A DNA stretch of 64,000 bases from Patescibacteria group bacterium (GTDB lineage: Bacteria > Patescibacteriota > Patescibacteriia > UBA1558 > GWA2-36-10). Location: assembly GCA_041665505.1 (NCBI GenBank), contig JBAYIR010000001.1, forward strand, positions 83,108-147,107. The letters are read 5' to 3'. Numbering within the stretch: the stretch's first letter is position 1; each line of letters opens with the position of its first letter. Shown piece by piece: positions 54 through 64,000 of the stretch. A model generated the notes under the pieces. The model searched no databases. It saw only the letters and a program-made list of their open reading frames with translations, and was not told the origin of the DNA. The translations under genes were made by a program, and so were the position numbers.

Positions 54-959
54 TTGGATTTTTTAGCTATAACAAAAAAAGAAGATGCTGATTATTATTT
101 AAATGAAGAATTAAACAGTGTTATATCATTTGAGGGTAATTTTAAAAAAATAAGTAGTGAAGAGGTTTTAATGATAGGTACTGATTATATAGTGAAATCA
201 GGTGATAAATATATGGCGATTAGTTTTAATATGTTTACTGGTAATGAAACAGCCTATCAGACTGCTCTAGCTAAAGCTCAAGAAGTAATCAAGACTTTTT
301 CTCTTTCCGCTTCTCCTCACCAAACAGAAACTGTTGTTGAAGATACAGAAAAGCCTAAAGTGCCAGCAGAAGTTACAAAACAGCCAATATATGTTCCTCC
401 TGTTAAAGTTGGTAGTTTGGCCAATAGGCTCAAAGGACGCATTCTTTTACAAGTGGAGTCCCATGGTGAGGCTTGGTATGTGAAGCCAGAAACAGGTACA
501 AGAATGTATATGAAAGATGGAAGTGCTGCTTATGGTATGATGAGAGAGTTAGGTCTGGGCATTACCAACGCTGATCTAGCCAAAATCCCAGTTGGTCTTG
601 AGTCAAGATTTGAATGCCAAGATTCTGATAGTGACGAACTATGTGACAAATTAGAGCAAGGATTAGGTTCAGATCCTAGTGATAGTGACTCGGACAATGA
701 TGGCTATAATGATGGCACAGAGATTAACACCGACCATAATCCTTTAGGAGTAGGGAAAATGTCTTATAATAATACCTTAATTAATCGTTTGCAAGGTAAA
801 ATAGTTTTACAGGTAGAATCTCGTGGAGAAGCTTGGTATATAAATCCAGTTGATGGTAAAAGATACTATATGCCAGATGGACCATCAGCTTATCAGATTA
901 TGCGTTATCTTAGTTTGGGTATTACTAATAAAGATTTAGAATCAATATCTGCAGAATAA
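54..959 (+). CDS. hypothetical repeat protein with TSP3-like acidic Ca-binding motif and two ~55-aa internal repeats
   Basis: ORF track 301 aa. DSDSDxD/DNDGYNDG acidic stretch between two near-identical modules LQVESxGEAWY..G.RYYM.DG..AY..MR.LGLGITN (DNA repeats ~421-590 and ~781-950). Low-GC native composition. May be 5'-truncated by window edge. Confidence 0.5.
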   Translation: MDFLAITKKEDADYYLNEELNSVISFEGNFKKISSEEVLMIGTDYIVKSGDKYMAISFNMFTGNETAYQTALAKAQEVIKTFSLSASPHQTETVVEDTEKPKVPAEVTKQPIYVPPVKVGSLANRLKGRILLQVESHGEAWYVKPETGTRMYMKDGSAAYGMMRELGLGITNADLAKIPVGLESRFECQDSDSDELCDKLEQGLGSDPSDSDSDNDGYNDGTEINTDHNPLGVGKMSYNNTLINRLQGKIVLQVESRGEAWYINPVDGKRYYMPDGPSAYQIMRYLSLGITNKDLESISAE

Positions 960-999
960 TAGCAAACTTGGATAGTAGTTTTAAATATTTTAGGCAAAT

Positions 1000-1029
1000 G
1001 CTCTTGGTCAAGGACCAAGAGCATTTTAT
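1000..1029. terminator. bidirectional rho-independent terminator (palindromic hairpin gctcttggtc-aa-ggaccaagagc, flanked by T/A runs)
   Basis: Perfect 10-bp inverted repeat seen in sequence directly after stop of 54..959 and downstream (minus strand) of small ORF 1054..1158. Confidence 0.6.
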
Positions 1030-1053
1030 ATGTGATCGTCTGGCTAGCTCCGT

Positions 1054-1158
1054 CTAGTGGCGAAGGCCTGCTCCCATTGTGATGGACAGGAGCAGAAAAC
1101 CAATGACCTTTGACGAAAGCCAGACTAAGGTGTATTTCCCAAATTTTTTGTGCGACAT
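1054..1158 (-). CDS. 34-aa hydrophobic peptide (MSHKKFGKYTLVWLSSKVIGFLLLSITMGAGLRH) in GC-elevated mini-cassette
   Basis: Minus strand reads AAGGAGG-aaacagc(7 nt)-ATG at 1172..1156. Upstream perfect TTGACA(1269..1264)-17-TATAAT(1246..1241). One predicted TM helix. Longer 71-aa track ORF 1054..1269 would run through its own promoter. Confidence 0.4.
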   Translation of the reverse strand: MSHKKFGKYTLVWLSSKVIGFLLLSITMGAGLRH

Positions 1159-1240
1159 GCTGTTTCCTCCTTGACTCGAGTAGCTGGCGGGTGGACAGTT
1201 GTTGGTGGCACAAATCAAATAATGAACGAAATAGTTATTT

Positions 1241-1269
1241 ATTATATTATGATTATTTTTAGCTGTCAA
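1241..1269 (-). promoter_or_regulatory. perfect consensus sigma70 promoter TTGACA-17-TATAAT (minus strand)
   Basis: Plus strand attata at 1241-1246 and tgtcaa at 1264-1269, exactly 17 nt apart; counted base by base. Confidence 0.6.
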
Positions 1270-10797: not shown

Positions 10798-11991
10798 TCA
10801 GTCTCCGTTGACCTCACCAATGATCCGGCGATGGTCACTGGTCTGAGCGACCAGTTTTCCGGCGACGATTGATATCGCCACCAGATCTCCCAGGAGAGTC
10901 ATGTCGAGCAGCTCCTGTGAGCCGTCCCGTCGCAGGAGTACCAGTCGGCTAGCCGACTGAACTCTGATCTCCCGGTACTGACCGGGCTCAGGGGCTATCT
11001 CAGCTACCGGCAGCGTCGGCTCTTGGTCGACGACCGGGGGCCAGATCTGCTGGTTGAGATCGACCGGGGGCCAGATCTGCTGGTCGACATCGACCGGGTC
11101 GATGTCCTGCCGAAGTCGGATTTCTCCGCCCTCGGAAGTGGTGGTTCGCGTACCAACTCGGACGTCGTTGCCACACCTCATCAGTGTGAGCGACGACGTG
11201 CCATCGGAAAGATAGCACCGCCAGGCCGGTTGCCAGTCGGGAATGTTCTTCTGCTGGCTTAGACCGCCAGCATAGCTCACCACCATGGGTCCACGTACGT
11301 CGACGGCCTCAATCCGGTCGATGCTCACTTGGCCGGGGAGCTTGGTTGATTCAGCGACCGTCATTGCGTTGCGCTCTACCTCGTACTGCCGAGCGAAGTG
11401 CTCAGCCGCTGTTTGGGCGGTTAGGATGCCGCCTGGCGCCTGATCTGGCCCCGAGTAGGGGTCAGCCATCTGTCGGAGGTAGCCTTCTTCGATCTCGTTT
11501 TGTCGACGATTGTCTTCCGCATCAGCATGCTGGGCCCTCTGGATGCCTTTACCTAGCAGGTAGGCCAGCGTAAACACCGCCATGATGACCGTGATGGCCA
11601 TCATCCAGCGTACCAAGGCGGGTGCCGTGGATCTTTCGGCCTGAGTCGTCGGCAGAGGAGATACAGTGGTGTCGGCCGGAATGGTCGGCACCATAGCATC
11701 GAGGCTAGCTCTTCGGAATTCGAAGAGGCGAACCAATGATGCTGGGATGATCAGCTTGTCACCAGGAATAATCATGTCCGGATCCGCCAGTTGCGGATTG
11801 GACTTGACCAACTCGGCCCACAAGCTCTTCTCTCCGAACGCCACTTGCCACTGACCGAGACGGTCAGCATCATCAACGATATACTCGCCGGATCCGTCGG
11901 CGAGCTTGTAAAGCCCACCTTCCGGAACCTGAGCACCGCAGATGCTGACGATGGTCAGTAGTAGCATGGCGCAGGACAGAATCCGTAGCAT
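10798..11991 (-). CDS. high-GC secreted/membrane protein: signal peptide, LysM-like motif, TM helix, C-terminal domain with tandem QQIWPPV repeat (foreign cassette A1)
   Basis: Start likely ATG 11991 (GGAGG at 12003..11999, 7-nt spacer), giving 398 aa, rather than the track start 12078. MLRILSCAMLLLTIVSICGAQ signal peptide; WAELVKSNPQLADPDMIIPGDKLIIP resembles LysM C-terminal half; hydrophobic LVRWMMAITVIMAVFTLAYLL. GC far above neighbours. Confidence 0.55.
   Translation of the reverse strand: MLRILSCAMLLLTIVSICGAQVPEGGLYKLADGSGEYIVDDADRLGQWQVAFGEKSLWAELVKSNPQLADPDMIIPGDKLIIPASLVRLFEFRRASLDAMVPTIPADTTVSPLPTTQAERSTAPALVRWMMAITVIMAVFTLAYLLGKGIQRAQHADAEDNRRQNEIEEGYLRQMADPYSGPDQAPGGILTAQTAAEHFARQYEVERNAMTVAESTKLPGQVSIDRIEAVDVRGPMVVSYAGGLSQQKNIPDWQPAWRCYLSDGTSSLTLMRCGNDVRVGTRTTTSEGGEIRLRQDIDPVDVDQQIWPPVDLNQQIWPPVVDQEPTLPVAEIAPEPGQYREIRVQSASRLVLLRRDGSQELLDMTLLGDLVAISIVAGKLVAQTSDHRRIIGEVNGD
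11039..11098. repeat. perfect-ish 30-bp tandem direct repeat inside cassette A1 (ggccagatctgctggt[t/c]ga[g/c]atcgaccggg x2)
   Basis: Seen directly; encodes VDVDQQIWPP / VDLNQQIWPP on minus strand. Confidence 0.7.
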
Positions 11992-12143
11992 AATGCTACC
12001 TCCAAAATGAATAGGGGAAACTTCAGTTACAGGGATCTGTAACCGGGAAGATTGAAATGTTTTTCGCTCTTCCCCCAAATACCCTATAGATACTTGGGGT
12101 AAAAGCGAATATTAACTTATAAATTGGCACTATACAATATATA

Positions 12144-12203: not shown

Positions 12204-12232
12204 TTGACAATTATTATATTTTATGATATAAT
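12204..12232 (+). promoter_or_regulatory. perfect consensus sigma70 promoter TTGACA-17-TATAAT driving cassette A2
   Basis: ttgaca 12204-12209, tataat 12227-12232, spacer exactly 17; AGGAGG at ~12288 then ATG 12303. Confidence 0.6.
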
Positions 12233-12302
12233 ACTATATTGGTTCGAGAACTGAAGTCTGTAAACCTGGCCAAGAAATTGGCCTTACCAGGAGGAAAGAA
12301 TC

Positions 12303-13037
12303 ATGTTGTTTAACAAGAACACTTCCAAGAAGCTTGCTCAGGGTTTTCTGATTCTGATCGGGTCGTTGTTGATTCTGGCTGTCGTCATCGCCTTGGTCGG
12401 CGAGGCCAAGGCTGGTCCGATTCCGCGCTGGGATCACAACAGTGACATTGGTATCTGGAACGAGAGCACCCACCCGCCGCGGGCAGAGGTCAGACTCAAC
12501 CTGATCAACGCCCAATCCACTGGTGTGGAATCTCGTCTCCAAGGCGTCTGCTACGACCTCCTGGAGAAGAAGGACAAACCCTACTACCTGTACTTGGGCT
12601 TCGGCTTCCAGAGCGGACACCTGGACATCGAACCGGCTCTTGGCTGGTCCTTTCGCGACAATGAGTGGGTGGCGGCCTTTCGCACTTATCCCGAGTGGGA
12701 GAAGTGGCGGGGCTACTCCAACTGCGAGTATCAACTCGAGACCAAGAGCTGGTACTATTTGGCTCAAATCGAAACCCACTTCAACCACTGGGTAGAGTGT
12801 GGTGCCGAGATGGAGGGTTGGGGCGACATCGACGACCAGTTGACCAGCAATGGTGCTGGTATCAATGTTGTTTTCAACACCCATCCGCGGTGGGGCAATC
12901 CGGACTCAAAACTCCGGATAGAAGCTGGCCTTCAGCTCCGAGAGATGGACTCGAAGTACAAACCGCAGCTCATCGTTCGATTCATATTTAGCCCGGAGAT
13001 GGAGGAGCACACGCCAGATCCTAGGAGGTGGAGATGA
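12303..13037 (+). CDS. high-GC hypothetical protein, N-terminal TM/signal anchor, Trp/Gly/Tyr-rich beta-type domain (foreign cassette A2)
   Basis: 244 aa; LAQGFLILIGSLLILAVVIALVG hydrophobic N-terminus; strong SD; first ~10 codons AT-richer than remainder; no family recognised. Confidence 0.55.
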   Translation: MLFNKNTSKKLAQGFLILIGSLLILAVVIALVGEAKAGPIPRWDHNSDIGIWNESTHPPRAEVRLNLINAQSTGVESRLQGVCYDLLEKKDKPYYLYLGFGFQSGHLDIEPALGWSFRDNEWVAAFRTYPEWEKWRGYSNCEYQLETKSWYYLAQIETHFNHWVECGAEMEGWGDIDDQLTSNGAGINVVFNTHPRWGNPDSKLRIEAGLQLREMDSKYKPQLIVRFIFSPEMEEHTPDPRRWR

Positions 13038-23228: not shown

Positions 23229-23354
23229 TTCGACTCCGTTCTGCTCTGCAGAACTTCGCTCATGGTCTGCGACCACAAAAGTAAATTAAAATATAAGGTG
23301 TCGAATGTCCTGAGCGGAGTCCTGAGTTTATCGGAGGACGAAGTCGAAGGACAT
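23226..23354 (+). ncRNA. conserved structured tRNA 3'-trailer element, copy 1 (unknown family)
   Basis: Starts at the tRNA-Val CCA with TTCGACTCCG. Shares hairpin, ACTTCGCTCA/TGAGCGRAGT long-range pair, TGGTC/GACCA stem and CATTCGACTCC/GG(A/T)GTCGAATG closing helix with copies at 28003..27891(-) and 58824..58946(+). Followed by weak hairpin plus T7. Confidence 0.5.
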
Positions 23355-23383
23355 TAAAAATCAGTTTTATTTAAGGACTGTTT

Positions 23384-23430
23384 TTTTGTTGAAAAAAGAA
23401 GGCCGCCGCCACGTCAGACGTGGCGGCGGC
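23384..23430 (-). terminator. GC-rich palindromic terminator of cassette B1
   Basis: gccgccgccacg-tcaga-cgtggcggcggc 12-bp stem; A-run on plus (T-run on minus) at 23391-23397. Confidence 0.6.
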
Positions 23431-23445
23431 ATGAAGCGATATGAC

Positions 23446-24111
23446 CTAGCCGAGGTCGGCTTGGTCGAGGAGGCTCTTCTCGTATCTCTCGGCCACTTCG
23501 AGCTGATGCATCAGCCCATCGATGGCCATCTGGATGAGGTCTTCCCGGCAGGTCGGGACAGCTACAAAGCGTCTAGCCGCTTTGTCAGTTGGGAACATCA
23601 CAACCATCCACCAGCCTGCGGTAATTCCGCCGATTCCTTTGACCTTGCTACCGTAGGTGGTTGCCTTACCATCGACGATATCGTCGGGATTCTCCAAGCC
23701 GTAGCCATGGAAGCAGCGATAGTCGGGACCATGACGCTTGAATCGCAGGACCGCCACGACGGGTATTCTCACGTATTGATGGTACGTGGCAGCAGAGCAG
23801 CTGGTCGCCCTGACGATCTCGTTGTAGAACCCATCTTTGCGCTGAATTCTGATCAGCTGGTCAGAGAGGTCTCCCAGGACCGTCTTGATCTCCGAGCTGT
23901 CTGCAATCGGCCGTGCTATGACCGTGGTGGCCTGGGGGTTGACCTTGATGTCCAGCAGTGCAAAGCCGGCTTTTGCCAAGCTGATGGGGGACTCCGGATC
24001 GAGGGTGCCAGTAGCTACATCGTCTCTACCGATTCCCCAACGAAAACAATGATTGCCGTCGAGCCGTACCACACCAGTGGTGTAGATGGGGTCACAATTT
24101 TGTGCCTGCAT
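23446..24111 (-). CDS. high-GC hypothetical cytoplasmic protein (foreign cassette B1)
   Basis: Preferred start ATG 24111 with GGAGG(24123..24119)-7 nt-ATG, giving 221 aa; track start 24147 lacks SD. Natural-looking composition, unlike the plus-strand antisense ORF 23386..24153. No family recognised. Confidence 0.5.
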   Translation of the reverse strand: MQAQNCDPIYTTGVVRLDGNHCFRWGIGRDDVATGTLDPESPISLAKAGFALLDIKVNPQATTVIARPIADSSEIKTVLGDLSDQLIRIQRKDGFYNEIVRATSCSAATYHQYVRIPVVAVLRFKRHGPDYRCFHGYGLENPDDIVDGKATTYGSKVKGIGGITAGWWMVVMFPTDKAARRFVAVPTCREDLIQMAIDGLMHQLEVAERYEKSLLDQADLG

Positions 24112-24193
24112 TGGGAATCCTCCAGATTTAGTTGCATTTGTCTGCATTTATGATGCCTGCTGGCACCATTGTTCCTAGAGTTAGGAACAAAGT

Positions 24194-24222
24194 ATTATAC
24201 TATTATTTATTTTTTTTGTCAA
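24194..24222 (-). promoter_or_regulatory. perfect consensus sigma70 promoter TTGACA-17-TATAAT driving B1 (minus)
   Basis: plus attata 24194-24199, tgtcaa 24217-24222, 17-nt spacer counted. 5' UTR begins with 7-bp hairpin gttccta-actc-taggaac. Confidence 0.6.
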
Positions 24223-24235
24223 TGGTTGTTATATT

Positions 24236-24278
24236 TAAAGAAAATTAAGACCGCCGCGCATCCAGGGACGCGCGGCGG
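24236..24278 (-). terminator. GC-rich hairpin terminator of cassette B2
   Basis: ccgccgcgc-atccagggac-gcgcggcgg 9-bp stem, A/T-rich tract on minus side after hairpin. Confidence 0.55.
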
Positions 24279-24290
24279 CTACGGAGGATA

Positions 24291-24791
24291 CTACGGAAGT
24301 ATCTTCCAGACGGTAGGATTTCTTTTCCGGAAACTCTTGATGCTCTGCTCTCGGTGCATATTTTTGGCCAACACTACGGCCAAGATCAGAAGCATCAGAG
24401 CCATGAGGCTCTTGAACAGAGCCAAAATCCCTTGACCTAAAGGAGCGTGGATGGTGTGGACGGACATCGTCGCAACCAGTTTGTCTCCTTTGGTCTCGTA
24501 GACCATGAACTGGTACTGACCGAAGACGATCAGTGCTTCTTCGCCACTTTTGATGGTGGCGAGGTGCCGGCTGTTCTTGATGACCTTGAAGTAACACTCC
24601 TTGGAGTCGATGGTGACCAGCGCATGTTCGCTAATCTTGAAATCGACACTGTCGCCGTCCCGAAGGACAGCTCCAGTCACAGGAATCCGGTCATTCTCCG
24701 AACGAATATGGAGCTCGATAGCTCCTTCGCTCGCACGGACGACGGTGGTGGCACAGATCAGAATGGCGATGGTCAGAAGAAGAGTCTTCAT
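24291..24791 (-). CDS. high-GC secreted protein with N-terminal signal peptide and C-terminal TM anchor (foreign cassette B2)
   Basis: 166 aa; MKTLLLTIAILICATTVVRASEG signal peptide; C-terminal LMALMLLILAVVLA hydrophobic helix; AAAGGA SD 8 nt before ATG. Confidence 0.5.
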   Translation of the reverse strand: MKTLLLTIAILICATTVVRASEGAIELHIRSENDRIPVTGAVLRDGDSVDFKISEHALVTIDSKECYFKVIKNSRHLATIKSGEEALIVFGQYQFMVYETKGDKLVATMSVHTIHAPLGQGILALFKSLMALMLLILAVVLAKNMHREQSIKSFRKRNPTVWKILP

Positions 24792-24894
24792 GTCGCGAGT
24801 CCTTTCGCTTGCAGTTTCAGGTTCCTTCCCTCTTTATTTTAAAGGCTTTTGAGCCTTTTGTGACGTCAATGAGCTTGCTTTAAGCAATTATCTA

Positions 24895-24923
24895 ATTATA
24901 GCACTTTTTATCTTTTTTGTCAA
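24895..24923 (-). promoter_or_regulatory. perfect consensus sigma70 promoter TTGACA-17-TATAAT driving B2 (minus)
   Basis: plus attata 24895-24900, tgtcaa 24918-24923; ~95-nt leader to ATG 24791. Confidence 0.6.
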
Positions 24924-25021
24924 TGTATATTATTAAAATATATAAATATGTTTGAAAGCGCCATTATAGTTGACAATATTGATTATTTTTGTTAATATTT
25001 ACCCTGTTAAATAAAGAAAAT

Positions 25022-27890: not shown

Positions 27891-28003
27891 GTGTCCTTCG
27901 GTTCGCTATGCTCACTCAGGACATTCGACACCTTATATTTTAATTTACTTTTGTGGTCGAAGACCATGAGCGAAGTTCTGCAAAGCAGAACGGAGTCGAA
28001 TGG
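27891..28003 (-). ncRNA. conserved structured tRNA 3'-trailer element, copy 2 (inverted relative to copy 1)
   Basis: Reverse complement is identical to copy 1 over ~95 nt except two substitutions, both in hairpin loops (tc->tt, tgc->ttc); begins at the tRNA-Lys CCA. Confidence 0.5.
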
Positions 28004-28077: not shown

Positions 28078-28206
28078 GTATGAAAAATTAAAATTTGTAA
28101 ATTATCAATGATCTGGCCTATCTATCTTGGAGGCGAAGCCTGGAAGGCTGCCTGTCCCGCGTAGCTTTAGCGAAGCGGGGAGCTATAGGCGCATGTTTTT
28201 TTGAGC

Positions 28207-28232
28207 TACCTGCCTGCCGGCAGGCAGGTAGG
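28207..28232. repeat. perfect 26-bp palindrome ctacctgcctgc-cg-gcaggcaggtag, flanked by partial copies of the tRNA-Lys 5' end
   Basis: Seen directly; taggcgcgtatgaaaaattaaa at 28232-28253 repeats 28071-28092; gagctataggcgca at 28182-28195 repeats tRNA positions 1-13. Confidence 0.6.
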
Positions 28233-28298
28233 CGCGTATGAAAAATTAAATGTAAAATACGGAGATTAGTATATACATTTTTGTTTGTATTGTCAATA

Positions 28299-30110
28299 TT
28301 ACATTATCTCTGGTGCTTTGATACCAAGTAGAGCTAGACCATCTTTTAAGACATTTTTGGTGAGTTTAGAAATAGCTAGTCTAATTTGTTTGCTTGACTG
28401 GCCTTCGGCATTTAAAACGCTATGTTGTTGGTAAAAATTATTATATGTTTTAGCTAAATCAAATAAATATTGAGAAATCAAAGAAGGGTTTTTATCAATA
28501 GCTGCTTTTTGAATAATATTGGTAAATATTAATAAAGTTTTGACTAATTTTCGTTCTTCTTTATTAAAATTAAAATCTTTTATTTTAGTCAAATTATTTA
28601 TTTTGTCACCTTTTTTTAGCATCGTTGAAATTCTAGCATGGGTATATTGAATAAAAGTACCAGTGTAACCGTCAAAAGAGATGGACTGAGCTGGTTTGAA
28701 AACTATATTTTTTTGTGGATTGGTAGCTAGCATAAAAAATTTAAGAGCTCCTAAACCCACAATTTTTGAGATATCTTCTTTTTGCTCTTCAGAACTATCA
28801 ACTTTTTTCTCGGCTTTACTCATAATTTCTTTGGCCGAATTTATCATCGTTGTTATCAGCTCATCAGCGTCAGCTGTCTTGCCTTCACGGGATTTTATTT
28901 TGCCACCAGGTAAAGAAACCATGCCGTATGATAGGTGATATAAATTTTTGGCCCAGTCAAAGCCTAATTTTTGTAAAGTCAAAAATAATACTTTAAAGTG
29001 ATATTCTTGTTCATTGGCTACCACATAGATAGCTTGGTCAAATTTGAATTTTTTGTATCTACTTTCAGCTGTGCCCAAATCTTGAGTAATATAAACTGAT
29101 GTGCCATCAGAGCGCAAGACTATTTTTTGATCCAAACCATCACTAGTCAAGTCTATCCAAATAGAGCCATCATCTTTTTGAAAAAATACTTTTTGTTTTA
29201 GACCTTTGGTTATTATATCTTTGCCTAGTAGATAATTTTCAGATTCAAAATCCAAATGGTCAAATTCAATGCCTAAATCATGATAAGTTTTGTCATAACC
29301 AATATAAACCCAATCATTCATAGTCTTCCAGAGCTGATATACTTGAGGATCGTTGTTCTCCCAAGCCAATAACATGGCTCTAGCTTTTTTCATCCAACTG
29401 GAGTGATCTAAAAATTTTTCTTCAGTTTTTTTGCGTTCTAAATTATCCAATTTATCTAAGTCAATATTATTTTTAGCATAATATTTTTCGGCTTCCTCTT
29501 TGAGTAATTGACCAAACTTTACATAATATTTACCGACCAAATGGTCTCCTTTAATACCAGATGATTGGGGAGTTTCACCATTACCAAATTCTTGCCAGGC
29601 CAGCATACTTTTTACAATATGAATGCCGCGGTCATTGATAATATTGACAGCCGTAGTTTTGTAGCCAGCGGCTCTAAAGATATTGACTAGCGCTTGGCCG
29701 ATACAATCATTACGGACATGACCGACATGTTGAGGTTTGTTGGTGTTTGGTCCAGAAAATTCGATTAGTATTTTTTTATTTTGTCCGTATTTGCTTTGAC
29801 CAAATTTTTTGTTTTTAGCTATTTGGTCAATAGATTCTTTGATAAAATCATTACTGACAAAAATATTGAGATAAGGGCCAATATTTTTTACTTGAGTTAT
29901 AGCTGCTCCAATTTGATATTTATCAGCTAGTTCTTTGGCAATGGTGACTGGATTTTGACCTAATTTTTCGGCTAAGTCAAAACAGGGGAAAGCATAATCT
30001 CCTAATTCTTCTTGTGGGGGATAGTCTAAATCAAAATCATCTATTTTTTGCTGATAGATAGCTTTTAAATTAATCCTAATGTCTTGTTTGATTTTAGCAA
30101 TAGCGTCCAT
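28299..30110 (-). CDS. argS: arginyl-tRNA synthetase
   Basis: 603 aa class I aaRS; PNTNKPQHVGHVRN HIGH-region as in ArgS. Confidence 0.8.
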   Translation of the reverse strand: MDAIAKIKQDIRINLKAIYQQKIDDFDLDYPPQEELGDYAFPCFDLAEKLGQNPVTIAKELADKYQIGAAITQVKNIGPYLNIFVSNDFIKESIDQIAKNKKFGQSKYGQNKKILIEFSGPNTNKPQHVGHVRNDCIGQALVNIFRAAGYKTTAVNIINDRGIHIVKSMLAWQEFGNGETPQSSGIKGDHLVGKYYVKFGQLLKEEAEKYYAKNNIDLDKLDNLERKKTEEKFLDHSSWMKKARAMLLAWENNDPQVYQLWKTMNDWVYIGYDKTYHDLGIEFDHLDFESENYLLGKDIITKGLKQKVFFQKDDGSIWIDLTSDGLDQKIVLRSDGTSVYITQDLGTAESRYKKFKFDQAIYVVANEQEYHFKVLFLTLQKLGFDWAKNLYHLSYGMVSLPGGKIKSREGKTADADELITTMINSAKEIMSKAEKKVDSSEEQKEDISKIVGLGALKFFMLATNPQKNIVFKPAQSISFDGYTGTFIQYTHARISTMLKKGDKINNLTKIKDFNFNKEERKLVKTLLIFTNIIQKAAIDKNPSLISQYLFDLAKTYNNFYQQHSVLNAEGQSSKQIRLAISKLTKNVLKDGLALLGIKAPEIM

Positions 30111-33890: not shown

Positions 33891-34613
33891 ATGACTCGCA
33901 AGCCCGTGATTCAAACAGCTCTCGAAAGCCTTGACCGTCAGATTGATGACAGAGTGGTCATCGACATTGACGGCGATGTGGATGAGGCCCAGCACATGCT
34001 TTACGCGTTTCGCACTTCGGTGGAAGAGGTGATCTTCGAAGGAGACAACACCGAAGAGTGTCGTCGGCAGTGCCTGGCCAACCTGACCAAGGTCGGCTAC
34101 CTGGAAGAGGCCATCAAGGAGTTGATGACTTTCTCCAAGCGGAGTCGGCGAGCGGTTCGTCGGTGGCTCTATGGGGAAGTTGTTCCTCAGCGAGTTGATT
34201 GGCTGCGGTGGCAGTACTGGCTTCGCGCCAAGGGGTACTACACGCGCGAGCTTGACCACATGCCCAACAGCTTCTTCCAGTTGCGCAAGCACATCCTCTG
34301 TGGCGATATCAGCTTCGCGGTTGCCGCCAAGGAGCTTGGTTGCACTCAGAAGGTTCTTCGGGGCATTCTGAACAATGAGGTGGACAGAGCTGTGATCATC
34401 AGTATCATCGGCAATGTCCACCATCTGGTGGCCAAGATCAACCGGCAGATCAGCCATCGGGAGATTGTCGGTTACATGGAGGTCTATTTGGATTCCGACG
34501 GCGAGTTTGCCGAAGTGAATCGGCGCTACAACCTGGACAACCAGAAGCGTCGTCGTAAGGTGGCTCACAAAGCTGCCAAGGCTCGCCGCAAGGCCAGGTC
34601 TTCCAAGAGCTAG
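33891..34613 (+). CDS. high-GC hypothetical protein with strongly basic C-terminal tail (foreign cassette C)
   Basis: 240 aa; GGAGG 9 nt upstream of ATG; C-terminus KRRRKVAHKAAKARRKARSSKS suggests nucleic-acid binding; TTGACA at 33767 with weak TAAAAA -10 at 17 nt; GC-rich hairpin 34638-34670 downstream. Opposite-strand ORF 33828..34568 judged antisense artefact. Confidence 0.5.
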   Translation: MTRKPVIQTALESLDRQIDDRVVIDIDGDVDEAQHMLYAFRTSVEEVIFEGDNTEECRRQCLANLTKVGYLEEAIKELMTFSKRSRRAVRRWLYGEVVPQRVDWLRWQYWLRAKGYYTRELDHMPNSFFQLRKHILCGDISFAVAAKELGCTQKVLRGILNNEVDRAVIISIIGNVHHLVAKINRQISHREIVGYMEVYLDSDGEFAEVNRRYNLDNQKRRRKVAHKAAKARRKARSSKS

Positions 34614-47818: not shown

Positions 47819-49108
47819 ATGGAAAATATTTTTATTAAAGATTTAAAGGATTTTGTTGATCAGGAAGTAGTCATCAAAGGCTGGGTGGCTAATTTCCGTT
47901 CTTCTGGCAAAATTGCTTTTTGGCAAATTAGAGATGGCAGTGGCTTTGTCCAAGCTATTTTGAATTCCAATGATTTATCAGAGACTCAGTGGTCAGAGGC
48001 TCAAAAAGTGACTTTGGAGACTTCTGTTAAATTAATAGCTAAGGTAGCCAAACATCCAAAAAAAGACGAGTATGAATTACAGGTAAAGGATTTTAGTTAT
48101 TATCAAATTTCCGATGAATATCCCATTGGTAAAAAAGATCATGGTGTAGATTTTTTGATGGATAATAGACATTTGTGGCTTAGATCTACTAAGCAAATTG
48201 CTATTCAGAAAATTAGAAATACACTTATCCAAGCCAACTATGATTATATGGCCAAAAATTCCTTTACCAAGATTGATGCACCAATTTTGACACCCAATGC
48301 TTGTGAAGGCACTACAGAATTATTTGAAATAAATTATTTTGACGAAAAGGCTTATTTATCACAAAGCGGACAATTATATATAGAGTCGGCTATTTTTGCT
48401 CACAACAGAGTCTTTGATTTTGGTCCAGTTTTCCGCGCTGAAAAATCAAAAACGCGTCGTCATTTGACTGAGTTTTGGATGATGGATGCTGAAATGGCTT
48501 TTGTGGACCTTCAAGAAAATATGGCTATTCAAGAAGCATTAATCCGTCATATGGTCACAGTTGTTTTGGAAAAAAATCAAACAGAGCTGGCAGTTTTAGA
48601 AAGAGATATAAAACCTCTTGAAAATATTATCAAGCCATTTCATAAAATTACACATACAGAGGCTGTTAAAATGCTGCAAGAGATGGGTAGTGATATCAAA
48701 GAGGGGGATGATTTGGGAGCAGATGATGAGACAATACTAACCAAAAAATTTGATAATCCATTGTTTGTTACTCATTATCCAGCCAAGATTAAAGCTTTTT
48801 ATATGAAGCGTAATGCTACTGATCAGTCATTGGCTGAATGTAGTGATTTATTAGCCCCAGAGGGTTATGGAGAAATTATTGGTGGTTCACAACGTGAAGA
48901 TGATTATGATATTTTATTAGAGCGTATTAAAGAGCAAAAATTACCAGTTGATGAGTTTCAGTGGTATTTAGATCTCAGAAAATATGGCAGTGTACCTCAT
49001 GGTGGTTTTGGTTTTGGATTGGAGAGAATAGTAGCCTGGGTTTGTGGTATTAGCCATGTCAGAGAAACCATTCCCTTTCCTAGAACAATTAATAGATTAA
49101 AACCTTAA
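47819..49108 (+). CDS. asnS: asparaginyl-tRNA synthetase
   Basis: 429 aa class IIb aaRS; OB-fold N-terminus, motif 2 FRAEKSKTRRHLTEFWMMDAE, EIIGGSQRE motif typical of AsnRS. Confidence 0.75.
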   Translation: MENIFIKDLKDFVDQEVVIKGWVANFRSSGKIAFWQIRDGSGFVQAILNSNDLSETQWSEAQKVTLETSVKLIAKVAKHPKKDEYELQVKDFSYYQISDEYPIGKKDHGVDFLMDNRHLWLRSTKQIAIQKIRNTLIQANYDYMAKNSFTKIDAPILTPNACEGTTELFEINYFDEKAYLSQSGQLYIESAIFAHNRVFDFGPVFRAEKSKTRRHLTEFWMMDAEMAFVDLQENMAIQEALIRHMVTVVLEKNQTELAVLERDIKPLENIIKPFHKITHTEAVKMLQEMGSDIKEGDDLGADDETILTKKFDNPLFVTHYPAKIKAFYMKRNATDQSLAECSDLLAPEGYGEIIGGSQREDDYDILLERIKEQKLPVDEFQWYLDLRKYGSVPHGGFGFGLERIVAWVCGISHVRETIPFPRTINRLKP

Positions 49109-50149: not shown

Positions 50150-51565
50150 ATGACAAGAATAAAAACAATAGAAACAGTAAATAAAGTAGGTGAAACAGTT
50201 TTGGTCAAAGGCTGGGTCAATGTCCGTAGAAATATGGGTAAAATTGCTTTCTTGGATTTACGTGACCGTTTTGGCATACTGCAAGTAGTGGCTGTACCAG
50301 CTGAGCTGGATGAAGCATCACAGGCTTTATTAAATACTATCCGTCCAGAGTTTGTCTTGGCTATAGAAGGTCTAGTCCAAGCTCGGGGGGCTAAACAAAT
50401 CAATAATGACTTAGCTACCGGCACAGTTGAACTTTTGGCCAAAAAAATACAGATATTATCTGAGGCTGAAACACCACCATTTGAAATAGATAATGAAGAA
50501 CGGCAAGCCAATGAAGAATTGCGTTTGAAATATAGATACCTTGATCTTCGCCATGAGCGCATGAAAAATAATATTGTGGCTCGTGATAAAGTGATTATGT
50601 TTTTTAGAGAGTGGTTGCATAAAAATGATTTTATAGAAGTGCAGACTCCAATTCTTTCCAAATCTACCCCTGAGGGAGCTAGAGATTATCTAGTGCCCTC
50701 ACGTCTTCATCCGGGACAGTTTTTTGCTCTGCCACAAGCTCCACAGCAATACAAACAGCTACTGATGGTAGCTGGCCTTGATCGTTATTTTCAAGTGGCT
50801 CCTTGTTTTAGAGACGAGGATGCTAGAGCTGATAGAAGTCCAGGAGAATTTTATCAATTGGATATGGAAATGAGCTTCATGACTCAAGAAGAGATTCTTG
50901 TTTTGGTAGAAACAATGTTTACAGAAATGGTAGAAACTCTATTCCCAGAGAAAAAAATTACGAAAAAGCCTTGGCCAAGAATTGATCATGATGAAGCTAT
51001 AGCCAAATACGGCAGTGATAAGCCTGATTTGAGAGAAAACAAAAATGATCCCAATGAATTAGCTTTTGCTTGGATAATTAATTTTCCATTATTTGCCAAA
51101 CAAACTGATGAAGATAGATTTATTGGTGCTGGCGACACTTGGGGACCAAGTCACAATATGTTTACTGCTCCCAAAGAAGAAGATGTACCATTACTAGATA
51201 GTGATCCAGGCAAAGTCAGAGCCTACCAACATGATTTGGCTTTAAATGGTTTTGAAGTAGGAGGAGGAGCTATTCGTATTCATGACATGAAAATTCAAGA
51301 AAAAGTTTGGAATTTAATTGGCTTTTCTGATGAGCAGAAAAAACAGTTTAAGCATTATTTTGAAGCTTTCAAATATGGTGTACCACCTCATGGCGGTATT
51401 GCTCCAGGCTTAGACAGACTAATGATGGTTTTGTTGGGAGAAAAAAATCTCAAGGAAGTGACTGCTTTTCCTTTGACTTCTGATGGTAGAGATCCAATGA
51501 TGGAATCTCCAGCTAATGTTAGCCAAGAACAGCTGGATGAATTACATCTGTCTATTAAGAAATAA
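50150..51565 (+). CDS. aspS: aspartyl-tRNA synthetase (short, archaeal/eukaryal-type length)
   Basis: 471 aa class IIb; FRDEDARADRSPGEFYQLDMEMSF motif 2, GGGAIRIHD motif 3. Confidence 0.8.
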   Translation: MTRIKTIETVNKVGETVLVKGWVNVRRNMGKIAFLDLRDRFGILQVVAVPAELDEASQALLNTIRPEFVLAIEGLVQARGAKQINNDLATGTVELLAKKIQILSEAETPPFEIDNEERQANEELRLKYRYLDLRHERMKNNIVARDKVIMFFREWLHKNDFIEVQTPILSKSTPEGARDYLVPSRLHPGQFFALPQAPQQYKQLLMVAGLDRYFQVAPCFRDEDARADRSPGEFYQLDMEMSFMTQEEILVLVETMFTEMVETLFPEKKITKKPWPRIDHDEAIAKYGSDKPDLRENKNDPNELAFAWIINFPLFAKQTDEDRFIGAGDTWGPSHNMFTAPKEEDVPLLDSDPGKVRAYQHDLALNGFEVGGGAIRIHDMKIQEKVWNLIGFSDEQKKQFKHYFEAFKYGVPPHGGIAPGLDRLMMVLLGEKNLKEVTAFPLTSDGRDPMMESPANVSQEQLDELHLSIKK

Positions 51566-51582
51566 TATATTTAAGTATTTTA

Positions 51583-51617
51583 AAACACTCTGGGCACAAG
51601 CTCAGGGTGTTTTTTTG
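51583..51617 (+). terminator. terminator after aspS
   Basis: acactctgggcacaagctcagggtgt hairpin followed by T7. Confidence 0.5.
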
Positions 51618-51649
51618 ACCGGCCTTTTTGTTTGTAGTATAATAAAATA

Positions 51650-51806
51650 AATATAAAGTTCTTCCAGCTATTCACGTCTTGATAAACATCATTTATCATG
51701 ATGGCGTGGAAACCGTCAGCCCAAATGCGCCTCAGGTGTCTCCTAGCGCTTGCGCGCTGACGGAATAGGGGGCCGGCGTTCGTCGGCCCCCGTCCTTTTT
51801 TACTGC
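51650..51806 (+). ncRNA. candidate GC-rich small RNA with own promoter (TTGACC-17-TATAAT at 51615-51643) and strong intrinsic terminator
   Basis: Long-range pairing ccgtcagc(51712-51719)/gctgacgg(51758-51765) encloses gcgc-rich hairpins; terminator gggggccg-gcgttcgt-cggccccc plus T6 at 51769-51805. Only a 20-aa SD-less ORF inside. Confidence 0.35.
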
Positions 51807-51898
51807 TAAATACGTTTTTTATATTGGGCAAAATGAATTGAAAAAAAAGACTTTAAATGCTATAATAAAAACGCGTTTTTTATTACTTTATTCTATAA

Positions 51899-52603
51899 AT
51901 GCATCAAATCCAATTGGAACAATTTGAAGGTCCGCTGGATCTTTTACTTAAATTGATAGAAAAAAATCAGTTACAAGTCACAGAAATTTCTTTGGCCAAA
52001 ATTACTGATCAATATCTATCATACATAGAACAAGGCGAAAATATTGCTTCCACCGAGATAGCTGATTTTTTATTGATAGCTTCCAAGCTTATTTATCTAA
52101 AATCAAAATATTTATTGCCAGATTTTGATATTGAAGATGAAGAAGATGCTGCTTCTTTGGAAAATCAGTTAAAAATATACAGGCAATATTATGAAGCTAG
52201 CAAATTATTAGCCAAGCAATTTGGTGATTTTAATAAATTTTCATACCCTCGTATTACTCCTTATAAATTACCTAGTGAAAAAGGTTTTGCACCAGCTGAT
52301 AATGTGAATAAAGATATTATGAGAGAGTTATTTGCCAATGTAATTTCCAAAATAGAGAGAATAGTCAGTTTGCCAAAGATGATTATGACGCGAGCAGTTT
52401 CTATTAGTGAAAAAATTAGAGATTTGCAGGAGATTATAAAAATTCATAGTAAAATAAGTTTTAATAAAATGTTTAGGAGACAAGATAAGATTGAAACAGT
52501 GGTCAATTTTTTGGCCATGTTGGAACTCATCAAGCGTAAAGAAATAGATGTAGAGCAGGATATTTTATTTGGCGACCTAAATATATTAAGAAATCAAAAA
52601 TAA
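51899..52603 (+). CDS. scpA: segregation and condensation protein A
   Basis: 234 aa; LEQFEGPLDLLLKLIEKNQLQVTEISLAKITDQYL typical ScpA N-terminus. Confidence 0.85.
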   Translation: MHQIQLEQFEGPLDLLLKLIEKNQLQVTEISLAKITDQYLSYIEQGENIASTEIADFLLIASKLIYLKSKYLLPDFDIEDEEDAASLENQLKIYRQYYEASKLLAKQFGDFNKFSYPRITPYKLPSEKGFAPADNVNKDIMRELFANVISKIERIVSLPKMIMTRAVSISEKIRDLQEIIKIHSKISFNKMFRRQDKIETVVNFLAMLELIKRKEIDVEQDILFGDLNILRNQK

Positions 52604-58601: not shown

Positions 58602-58751
58602 TCCTTTTTGTATTTTAGTAGTTAGAAATTAATTTGTCGTCTGCCGTCATAGCTCCCCGCACAGTCCTGCGGACTTGACGGGGCGAGTGTTGGTAAAATA
58701 AAGAGTAATAGGCACTTTCTTAGTTTAGTATATAAAATAAGTTTATTATCT

Positions 58752-58823
<72 letters not shown>

Positions 58824-58826
<3 letters not shown>

Positions 58827-58946
58827 TTCGACTCCGTCCCGCTAAAGCGGGACTTCGCTCATGGTCTTCATCCTCACCGCCATAGGCGGTTCGGATTGCG
58901 ACCACTTTTCTAGGAGTCGAATGCCCTGAGCGAAGTCGAGGGGCAT
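58824..58946 (+). ncRNA. conserved structured tRNA 3'-trailer element, copy 3 (divergent, with compensatory stem changes)
   Basis: TTCGACTCCG then hairpin gtcccgc-taaa-gcgggac (vs gttctgc-tc-gcagaac in copies 1/2), conserved ACTTCGCTCA...TGAGCGAAGT pair, TGGTC/GACCA stem carrying an inserted ccgcc-ata-ggcgg hairpin, perfect 11-bp closing helix CATTCGACTCC/GGAGTCGAATG. Confidence 0.5.
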
Positions 58947-58990: not shown

Positions 58991-59019
58991 TTGACAAAAT
59001 ATATAAAATATGTTATTAT
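58991..59019 (+). promoter_or_regulatory. near-consensus promoter TTGACA-17-TATTAT driving cassette E
   Basis: ttgaca 58991-58996, tattat 59014-59019, 17-nt spacer; ~100-nt GC-moderate leader with gggg-N13-cccc hairpin. Confidence 0.5.
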
Positions 59020-59123
59020 ATATAGTTCGTAATTCCTATTCGTATGAGTAGGTGGCTCTGAATGAGCAACGGGGTTTAGGCTTCTTTCCCCAACCAAGGA
59101 AGCGTGTTCTTTGAGGAGGCTGT

Positions 59124-59414
59124 ATGGCCAAGCAATTTGATATCACTGGTGGTCCCTCGCGGGAAGAGCTCTTTGACGCTCTGCGCCTGAGGCATGAGAA
59201 CAGGAAGCCTGTCTTCCACGTGCCGTACATCAGAGGAGGCTGTTTCGTAGTCAGTGTCGATGCCATCGGCATCGAAGACGGCAGTGGCGACAACTGGCTG
59301 TTGCAGCTACATGACCCTAATGGTCTTCTCGGGGCCAATCATTTGAAGGCCTACTTCAACACTGTCACGCGCAGGGGTTGGATGAAGCCCTTGGACTTGA
59401 AGCCCTTGGACTGA
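59124..59414 (+). CDS. high-GC small protein, 96 aa (foreign cassette E)
   Basis: GAGGAGG 4 nt before ATG; MAKQFDITGGPSREELFDALRLRHENRKPVFHVPYIRGGCFVVSVDAIGIEDGSGDNWLLQLHDPNGLL; no family recognised; antisense ORF 59036..59338 rejected. Confidence 0.5.
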   Translation: MAKQFDITGGPSREELFDALRLRHENRKPVFHVPYIRGGCFVVSVDAIGIEDGSGDNWLLQLHDPNGLLGANHLKAYFNTVTRRGWMKPLDLKPLD

Positions 59415-62918: not shown

Positions 62919-63081
62919 ATAAATAGTAAGTTTGAATTGCAGAATTAATATAGTATTTTTTTGTTGACAAACTATCAGACATCTTGTTATAATTATTAGT
63001 TATATAATAATTTATTATTTAAATATAAGATTGTAATTTTTATTACAGCTAAAAAATTAATTAACTAATTTAAGATAAAAT

Positions 63082-64000
63082 ATGAAAAAAGTTTTTAAAA
63101 CTGGTTTTTTCTACTTTGTCGCACTAACTATGTTAGTTGGGAATTCTGGCTTGCAAATCAAGCTAGCTTCTTTTAGTAATATAGCGCATGCCACATCTAG
63201 TGGAAAAGTAACAGTATGCCATGCAACTGGCAGTCAGTCTAATCCTTGGGAAAGGATAAATGTCGATGCTAGTGCTGTTGGTGCTCATACAGATCATGGT
63301 TCAGATATTATTTCTCCTGATGAGGATAATACATATCAATGTCCACAACCTCAGCCAGAACCAGAGCCAAGTTGTGACGGTGCTGATTTAGAATTTCCAG
63401 TAGATTTATATGTGGCAGGTGCTAATTGTGATATTTCTTTGCCTATTTATGACTCACAAGTAGTCAATTTAGTTAATGGAGGTAATTATGATGTTTATAC
63501 TGTAGCCAATCGCGATGCTTTAAATGAAGATACTACTTATGGCCAAGATAATGAAGAATTTACTATTAGAGTAAATAGTAGTATAGCTGGTGATGTTGTT
63601 TTGGATCAACCAGCTGGTCAAGTCTGGAGTATTCAAAATGCTGGTAATTTTGATTTTGTGAGCGGTGATAATACTGTTCATATGGATACAGCTTTTGATT
63701 GTATAGAAGCTGATAACTCGATGGCTAGAAATAGTGTGACAGTTACTAAACTTTGTCTATATGAAATTGATGAACAAGAGCCATTTTGTGGTGATTATAA
63801 TATAGATCCAGGCGAAGATTGTGACGCCGGCCCAACTGGTTCAGAGTCATGCACAAATGATTGTACTAATATTGAAGACCAAGAAAATTCAATTGCTACT
63901 GTAATTGCTCATAAGATTGTCTGTGATAAAGAAAGTGATTTACCAAATTGGTCTGGCAGTACAAATATTACTGCTGACACAGCTCAAAATTATGTAGATA
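63082..64000 (+). CDS. secreted Cys-rich repeat protein (3'-truncated by window end)
   Basis: Open frame from ATG 63082 to window end with no stop; signal peptide MKKVFKTGFFYFVALTMLVGNSGL; CGDYNIDPGEDCDAGP...C..DC resembles Cys-rich CxxCxxDxxE-type repeats. Confidence 0.5.
   Translation, partial: MKKVFKTGFFYFVALTMLVGNSGLQIKLASFSNIAHATSSGKVTVCHATGSQSNPWERINVDASAVGAHTDHGSDIISPDEDNTYQCPQPQPEPEPSCDGADLEFPVDLYVAGANCDISLPIYDSQVVNLVNGGNYDVYTVANRDALNEDTTYGQDNEEFTIRVNSSIAGDVVLDQPAGQVWSIQNAGNFDFVSGDNTVHMDTAFDCIEADNSMARNSVTVTKLCLYEIDEQEPFCGDYNIDPGEDCDAGPTGSESCTNDCTNIEDQENSIATVIAHKIVCDKESDLPNWSGSTNITADTAQNYVD

Follow-up and report, generated by a model that had tools for sequence, protein, structure and literature searches.

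A GC-rich segment between aspS and scpA, located within 64,000 nucleotides (nt) of contig JBAYIR010000001.1 of a Patescibacteria group bacterium (the whole stretch analyzed, hereafter the window), is best explained as an autonomous gene for a structured non-coding RNA (ncRNA) of ~150 nt, belonging to a lineage-restricted family that occupies the aspS–scpA gap as a hot spot. We assign this reading a probability of roughly 0.6. The narrower claim, that positions 51615–51801 are a real ncRNA gene under selection, is highly probable. Relatives of the aspartyl-tRNA synthetase AspS place the host in Candidatus Komeilibacteria, within the Candidate Phyla Radiation (CPR; Patescibacteria), the best species representatives being 86–89% identical in AspS. 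Judged from sequence comparison, the RNA family appears to be vertically inherited, rapidly diverging, restricted to Komeilibacteria and previously undescribed.

A promoter-to-terminator unit with a stable predicted fold

The initial annotation had proposed a stand-alone small RNA (sRNA) gene with a TTGACC-17-TATAAT promoter, a long-range helix and a 10-bp GC terminator followed by six T residues. Each of these elements lies where it had been placed, and the proposal is borne out by the unit's own promoter and terminator, by homologues with compensatory changes and by the lack of a conserved open reading frame (ORF). The parts of the unit are the following:

51615–51643, + strand: promoter, TTGACC (51615–51620), 17-nt spacer and TATAAT (51638–51643), with 11 of 12 consensus matches
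51650–51801, + strand: predicted transcript of ~150 nt, its start placed at ~51650, 7 nt past the -10 box, and its 3' end in the T-run
51657–51664, + strand: 5' motif AGTTCTTC (RNA AGUUCUUC), a candidate seed or recognition element
51662–51711, + strand: P1, an AU-rich hairpin in the minimum free energy (MFE) fold
51713–51763, + strand: P2, a GC-rich domain with outer helix CCGUCAGC / GCUGACGG (RNA)
51768–51801, + strand: intrinsic terminator identified by terminator scan, GGGGGCCGGC / GTCGGCCCCC at 51768–51791, then GTCC and T6 at 51796–51801

In the predicted fold, P1 consists of a basal helix (CACGUC 51673–78 with GGCGUG 51703–08) and an apical helix (GAUAAA 51681–86 with UUUAUC 51692–97). 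The outer, long-range helix of P2 joins, in DNA letters, CCGTCAGC at 51713–51720 to GCTGACGG at 51756–51763, and encloses inner AA/UU and GCGC/GCGC helices and a 15-nt apical loop containing CUCCU. The terminator has a 10-bp stem, nine of whose pairs are G-C, and a GTTC loop (RNA GUUC). At -62.8 kcal/mol, the MFE of 51650–51802 lies far below the -41.1 +/- 3.7 of dinucleotide shuffles (z = -5.9); not one shuffle in 200 folded as stably. A strong promoter followed within 40–400 nt by a perfect-stem terminator occurs only four times in the window, one of the four cases being the L10 leader known to Rfam. The unit is insulated on both sides, by a terminator of aspS upstream and a promoter of scpA downstream.

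The local GC content peaks at 0.51 at the sRNA, compared with ~0.33 for the genome, so the segment is indeed the compositional outlier that it had been called. The tRNAs of the window have GC contents of 0.51–0.58, and the GC-richness of the sRNA is, as for these tRNAs, simply that of its helices. The whole 334-nt aspS–scpA intergenic region is 100% identical on an independent JGI metagenome contig; the sRNA region is therefore not an assembly artefact. An exact match of ScpA is encoded on a 350-kb ENA metagenome contig and on independent JGI and Logan contigs.

Homologous units and compensatory changes

The aspS–scpA synteny is kept throughout Komeilibacteria, with spacers ranging from 8 nt to 2.9 kb that hold one to three small units, each comprising a consensus promoter, a predicted transcript of 100–260 nt and a GC-rich terminator. 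Homologues of the sRNA were found at this same position in at least five other Komeilibacteria lineages, some of them as tandem copies. The homologous units, designated by locus, are listed here with the identity of the neighboring ScpA to that of the window:

L247, 1597–1737: ScpA identity 85%; the closest relative carrying the sRNA, not in the seed of the R1 model described below
L007, 4498–4642: ScpA identity 82%; in the R1 seed
L004 = L256, 4634–4769: ScpA identity 78%; a long form; L004 in the R1 seed, L256 identical across the unit
L255, 853–1034 and 1316–1465: ScpA identity 78%; two of three tandem units
L257, 699–828: ScpA identity 77%

A covariance model (R1) seeded with the window, L007 and L004 sequences recovered the non-seed L247 unit at E = 2.9e-10. 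Weaker matches were obtained for two L255 copies (E = 0.015 and 0.1) and for L257 (E = 0.27); L007 and L004/L256 were matched strongly, but L007 and L004 form part of the seed and L256 is identical to L004. A model of P2 only (R2) gave E values of 7.5e-13 to 2.1e-6 for L247, L007, L004/L256, L255 (two) and L257, which holds by construction since these are its own seed or a duplicate; it found no further P2 copy in 436 kb of Komeilibacteria sequence. No second copy of the sRNA was detected in the window, either by blastn-short or by R2 with filters off.

The fold is supported by covariation. RNAalifold analysis of three sequences yielded 31 pairs, 11 of them with compensatory change, and pairing in the basal helix of P1 is kept through changes on both strands in L004 and L007. 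For P2, 89.6% of the cells in an alignment of seven sequences were paired, compared with ~31% (28–40%) in slid registers. Five P2 pairs are changed on both sides, for example from C-G to U-A and from G-C to A-U in L004, and the observed values were attained in 0 of 500 shuffles. P1 behaves as a hairpin whose position is constant and whose sequence is free to vary: L247, whose homologous terminator has the loop ATTCGTCG, carries at that place an unrelated 8-bp palindrome or hairpin. Purifying selection on the RNA is implied by these compensatory changes in P1 and P2 and by the persistence of the 5' motif from species to species.

Between species the sRNA is 58–62% identical at the nucleotide level, compared with 80–82% for the flanking genes, and conservation is concentrated in the 5' motif, the P2 strands and part of the terminator. 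Such islands amid fast divergence look like the usual sRNA pattern. Syntenic homologous copies in at least six lineages, the window included, fit vertical descent with turnover.

Some units are longer. In L004, L255 units A and C, and L259, ~90–100 extra nt lie between the 5' motif and P1. In these long forms we noted a T-arm-like hairpin, YUGGG-UUCNARN-CCCAR, adjoining an acceptor-like stem or a few nt from it; the window copy is without this hairpin. Neither ARAGORN nor Rfam matched the tRNA-like module, which is located as follows:

L004, 4575–4650: T-arm/acceptor-like module
L255, 820–905 and 1262–1335: T-arm/acceptor-like module, two copies
L259, 1075–1135: T-arm/acceptor-like module

The main alternative is an RNA that works through structure or protein binding, as a sponge, scaffold or decoy, with P2 and not the 5' end as its functional part. 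The P2 sequence is near-invariant in four species (CCGUCAG..CAAAUGCG and GCGCUUG), which exceeds what maintenance of a helix needs; the extra T-arm/acceptor module of the long forms suggests recognition by tRNA-handling proteins; and the search of the window described below yielded no base-pairing target. However, no partner protein is known or encoded nearby, the P2 apical loop, including its CU-rich stretch, is not conserved among homologues, and P2 is missing from L005, L006, L251, L255B and L259, all of which keep the 5' motif. We consider a protein-binding role of this kind unlikely, if worth keeping in view.

Absence of a conserved reading frame and of known RNA families

The initial annotation had seen no credible ORF in the unit beyond a 20-codon frame without a Shine-Dalgarno (SD) sequence. 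That frame, MMAWKPSAQMRLRCLLALAR, does exist in the window, lacks an SD and is not conserved among the homologues. A gene for a small protein, with a peptide of ~20 residues, could be argued from short frames that span P2 in several homologues, from the resemblance in one frame of VETVSPNAPQVSPSACALTE in the window to MTHQPVRPNALQLLPSACPLTVEGE in L247, and from an ATG in GATGG(C/A)G context that recurs in the window, L004 and L007. Against it, the frames in the homologues differ in start, register, length and stop, and none that spans P2 is preceded by an SD. The ATG of the window is out of frame with the look-alike peptide, and its 20-codon frame is in another register than the ATG frames of L247, L004 and L007. 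That of L007 continues through the terminator for 106 codons, and L255 lacks a start codon for this frame. A codon comparison of the window with L247 gives three synonymous and six non-synonymous changes and a stop that is not conserved, and the conserved nucleotide blocks are without 3-nt periodicity. A peptide product is therefore highly improbable. An antisense ORF of 83 codons has no counterpart in L247 or L007.

The Rfam search that the initial annotation had recommended returned no family: cmscan with Rfam 15 gave nothing at gathering score in the sRNA region, and only tRNAs and the L10 leader in the window as a whole. When 51500–51950 was searched at E <= 10, MicC (23.8/90 bits) and OmrA-B (20.6/40 bits) had the best E values; such alignments are at chance level and driven by the hairpin of the aspS terminator. 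Rfam was likewise negative for the spacers of 19 related loci and for the long-form units of L255, L259 and L004, and ARAGORN found no tRNA or transfer-messenger RNA (tmRNA) in the aspS–scpA spacer of the window or its relatives.

Several specific candidates were considered and rejected. A tRNA, a tmRNA and a YrlA-like mimic gave no match even at E <= 10, and a signal recognition particle RNA or 6S RNA has the wrong shape and no model match. Inspection by eye disposed of three more: a tRNA-Asp anticodon mimic (GUC within CCGUCAG), since this stretch is base-paired and reads GUU/AAC in L004 through compensatory substitution; a parS site, for which only a TTCACGT half-site is present; and a LexA-type GAAC/GTTC box, for which there is no partner half-site.

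We also scanned for exact matches to the 15-base core CCGTCAGNNCAAATGCG, which gave 44 and at least 120 matches among viral and metagenome contigs and proved too unspecific. By nhmmer, no match from the scan showed likeness beyond the CCGTCAGNNCAAATGCG core, so the viral and metagenome 15-mer matches are due to chance. The scan is uninformative on distribution, and the identical JGI contig is absent among the matches listed.

Flanking genes and insulation of the unit

The neighbors of the sRNA and their control elements are the following:

50150–51565, + strand: aspS, class II Asp-tRNA synthetase, 471 aa, with Pfam tRNA-synt_2 and an OB anticodon-binding domain; the upstream anchor
51586–51616, + strand: aspS intrinsic terminator, read directly from the sequence, 9-bp stem at 51586–51609 and T7 at 51610–51616
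51838–51866, + strand: scpA's own promoter, TTGAAA-17-TATAAT with TG extension, marking the downstream boundary of the sRNA and lying outside it
51899–52603, + strand: scpA, 234 aa, Pfam SMC_ScpA; the conserved downstream anchor

The T-run of the aspS terminator overlaps the -35 box of the sRNA, an arrangement shared with L007 and L255. The scpA promoter begins 37 nt 3' of the T-run of the sRNA terminator; it is conserved by blastn in L004–L007 and visible in L247, L251, L255 and L257.

This layout bears on whether the segment is a 3' untranslated region (UTR) of aspS or a back-up terminator, with the promoter incidental. In L247 and L251 no aspS terminator precedes the promoter, so that aspS transcripts must enter the sRNA and end at its terminator. 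Set against this, a strong aspS terminator stands upstream of the unit in the window, L007, L255, L257, L259 and L261, a near-consensus promoter scoring 10–12 of 12 lies upstream of every homologous unit, and each tandem copy has its own. An origin as mere 3' UTR is accordingly very unlikely.

The initial annotation had offered a cis-acting leader of scpAB as another option. The position upstream of scpA, on its strand, and the closing terminator would fit a leader, riboswitch or attenuator, but this is contradicted by the anatomy. The TG-extended scpA promoter stands 3' of the sRNA terminator, and nothing else in the spacer is as well conserved in relatives; L247 has a further gene between the sRNA and scpA; the element is absent from relatives with spacers of 8–109 nt; and no Rfam cis-regulatory family was matched. 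Hardly any credence is left for it.

The gene that intervenes in L247 (1835–2377) encodes 180 aa without a Pfam domain and has a promoter and terminator of its own. Upstream, the window contains two class II D/K/N-type aminoacyl-tRNA synthetase genes 1 kb apart, at 47819–49108 (429 aa) and 50150–51565 (471 aa). Between them lie a 68-aa ORF, a tRNA-Thr(CGU) gene and a peptidase S51 gene, in an order conserved in relatives. Another small unit stands elsewhere in the window at 62964–63174 (+), with a perfect TTGACA-18-TATAAT promoter, ~170 nt of AT-rich sequence (GC 0.21) and an 8-bp terminator.

A hot spot, and whether its contents are foreign

With a protein gene beside the sRNA in L247, the aspS–scpA gap is a hot spot for RNA and protein units alike. 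The unit might be a non-functional or selfish, phage-moron-like insertion, either the remnant of a GC-rich cassette that has lost its ORF or a promoter–terminator module duplicating at a permissive site. Its presence at a conserved insertion point is patchy; from species to species the spacer measures 8 nt to 2.9 kb and is occupied differently, by one to three small, unrelated units or by protein cassettes; the units of L255 are tandem duplications; the L251 copy is AT-rich and decayed, with 25–29% GC; and the window contains GC-rich protein cassettes with the same promoter and terminator layout, sometimes with GTTC. Against this reading, however, stand the compensatory changes in both P1 and P2 and a 5' motif kept from species to species. 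In addition, blastn-short showed no likeness of the sRNA to any cassette or other part of the window, and BLAST in distant mode against phage and plasmid sequences gave no match. Inspection of the sequence and its Pfam annotations brought neither flanking repeats nor recombinase genes to notice, though no search dedicated to them was run. Altogether we regard a functionless insertion as improbable. The earlier suggestion that the sRNA belongs to the same foreign set as the cassettes is likewise not supported in that form, given its syntenic position in several Komeilibacteria species, the absence of phage or plasmid matches and a GC content like that of the tRNAs; the sRNA is not supported as foreign DNA.

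The 5' motif and a possible mode of action

The RNA has a short A/U-rich 5' end that carries the conserved motif. AGUUCUU occurs 13–15 nt past the -10 box in the window, L247, L007, L251, L005, L006, L255 (all three units), L010 unit 3, L049 and L259, and is retained even where the bodies of the units share nothing else with the window RNA. Predicted accessibility is higher for the motif than for the remaining RNA in 10 of 11 units (mean ~0.66 compared with 0.38 unpaired), in a comparison whose L255B row is mis-registered. Because the 5' motif is conserved and predicted to be accessible, a trans mechanism through a 5' seed is favored. We tentatively suggest that the sRNA acts in trans as a base-pairing riboregulator via its conserved 5' end, at a likelihood somewhat short of even; the suggestion draws on the architecture of the unit and on analogy to 5'-seed sRNAs. 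The accessible conserved segment would be the seed, and P1, P2 and the terminator would lend the RNA stability and perhaps a platform for protein binding.

The 5' 31 nt were searched against 57 translation-initiation regions of the window, including cassette ORFs (those of cassettes c and e via the opposite-strand ORF only), in a search covering ~64 kb of genome. Several points weigh against the regulatory RNA gene and its proposed mode of action. The best duplex in this search was not above shuffled seeds (p ~0.1), and the complement GAAGAACU lies near no start codon among those regions. The 5' motif may just as well serve as a DNA operator or as a signal for processing, and GTTC also follows the promoters of GC-rich protein cassettes. 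The transcription start site and 3' end of the sRNA are predictions, and the covariation draws on seven sequences, among which independent events are few. In L247 and L251, where the aspS stop lies directly before the promoter without an aspS terminator, the RNA could arise by read-through as a 3'-UTR product. Finally, the locus is dispensable in some relatives, with spacers of 8–11 nt in L020 and L023 and of 109 nt beside P0008 (for P0007 and P0008, gene spacing alone was used).

GC-rich cassettes and tRNA-linked repeats in the window

Orphan GC-rich (55–60%) protein genes are scattered through the window of this 33% GC genome, at 10798–12078(-), 12303–13037(+), 23446–24147(-), 24291–24791(-), 33891–34613(+), 59124–59414(+) and ~905–1213(-). 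At least six such cassettes, all of them lacking Pfam domains, are each equipped with a consensus TTGACA-17-TATAAT promoter, an SD and a GC-rich terminator of their own. A set of 5.8 billion proteins includes only four homologues of one of them, cassette c.

Cassettes c and d (window 23346–24930) have syntenic counterparts of the same GC-richness in L258 (1710–3311), a very close relative, and the GC-rich cassettes are therefore not recent imports. L258 and the window are 93–94% identical at the nucleotide level in ybaB and recR and 90–99% identical in the cassette promoters and 5' UTRs, whereas the coding sequence of cassette c is only 66% identical in nucleotides and 57% in amino acids. Because the control regions are conserved while the cassette c protein is 57% identical, the cassette genes are better described as hypervariable than as foreign. 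The pattern may stem from diversifying selection or from allele replacement.

The link between the sRNA and the cassettes that the initial annotation had drawn survives in a weak form. What they have in common is the layout and a GTTC after the -10 box only. GTTC is found 5–15 nt past the -10 box at 12232–12250, 24185–24200(-), 59019–59035, 1227–1245(-) and, for the sRNA, 51657–51664, thus at the sRNA and four cassettes; all of these promoters drive GC-rich units. After strong promoters it occurs in 12 of 26 GC-rich units, compared with 6 of 48 others (Fisher p = 0.0035), and it is the top 4-mer, but the enrichment is not significant after correction for 256 4-mers and some rows are homologous. 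GTTC could be an operator, a 5' hairpin or a chance occurrence. In cassettes b and c it lies within a GTTC...GAAC inverted repeat.

The window also contains partial copies of the 5' end of a downstream tRNA, at 28080–28300(-) before tRNA-Lys(UUU) and at 58640–58751(+) before tRNA-Thr(GGU). They read GCGCCTATAGCTC and GCCGTCATAGCTC, each continuing as cccgc..., and are followed by GC-rich hairpins; the tRNA-Lys case stands under a strong promoter at 28296(-). The tRNA-Lys(UUU) and tRNA-Thr(GGU) genes have the same ~45-nt trailer, at 27960–28003(-) and 58824–58870(+), with the sequence CCAttcgactccgtYcYgct..agcRgaacttcgctcatggtctt, a repeat tied to tRNA 3' ends.

One could go further and see the sRNA as one member of a larger accessory program of GC-rich, strongly promoted, fast-turnover units in an episymbiotic CPR bacterium. 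Such a program would comprise the sibling aspS–scpA sRNAs, some with a tRNA-like module that RNase P might process, and the hypervariable orphan proteins; the units would have a promoter-proximal GTTC in common and be co-regulated for interaction with a host cell. The sRNA family would then be a tRNA-derived, rapidly diversifying regulator or effector RNA and not a housekeeping riboregulator. We hold this wider picture to be a long shot.

Significance and comparison with known systems

As a lineage-restricted ncRNA gene, the element is of an ordinary kind; new are the family and the dynamics of its hot spot in a CPR genome. CPR bacteria have tiny genomes and few recognizable regulators, and no sRNA described in Komeilibacteria or other CPR bacteria was found in the literature searched. 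The locus offers a concrete, testable sRNA family, whose consensus promoters suggest high expression and whose relatives supply natural variation in the form of short and long forms, tandem copies and loss. It can serve annotation and provide an entry point to post-transcriptional regulation in CPR bacteria, and it illustrates that GC-rich islands in AT-rich genomes do not have to be foreign DNA.

OmrA/OmrB and RybB are enterobacterial sRNAs with a seed at the 5' end and a Rho-independent terminator, OmrA and OmrB being adjacent paralogues. The Komeilibacteria units resemble them in having an independent promoter and terminator, a length of ~90–150 nt, a conserved segment at the extreme 5' end with a diverging body, and possible tandem paralogues (the three units of L255). 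They differ in host phylum, in the lack of sequence or covariance-model likeness and in their GC-rich internal P2; the Rfam OmrA-B alignment is a chance match at 51532–51614, which lies upstream of the sRNA and falls on the hairpin of the aspS terminator.

LhrC1-5 of Listeria and the csRNAs of Streptococcus are multicopy sRNAs with near-identical promoters and CU-rich loops complementary to the SD (anti-SD). Common to them and the present family are several sibling sRNAs, some in tandem, each with a strong promoter and terminator; in the window copy, the apical loop of P2 includes CUCCU, which is anti-SD-like. By contrast, the CU-rich loop is not conserved in our family, no regulator-binding repeat was identified and no Rfam match was obtained.

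Phage morons are autonomous promoter–gene–terminator units of deviant composition inserted between conserved genes. The sRNA unit is like them in its sigma-70-type promoter, a payload of differing GC, an intrinsic terminator, conserved neighbors and a patchy occurrence in relatives. It is unlike them in being chromosomal and syntenic in a CPR bacterium, in carrying a non-coding payload with covarying structure and in having no phage or plasmid homology.

Finally, the GC-rich intergenic region (GC-IGR) / DIMPL approach detects structured ncRNAs as long GC-rich intergenic regions in AT-rich genomes (PMC8723152, PMC11109978). Compared with the RNAs found in this way, the aspS–scpA element matches no Rfam 15 motif and forms a terminated stand-alone unit instead of a riboswitch-like 5'-UTR element. 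Like them, it stands out as a GC-rich island from its low-GC intergenic surroundings and corresponds to an RNA predicted to be folded.

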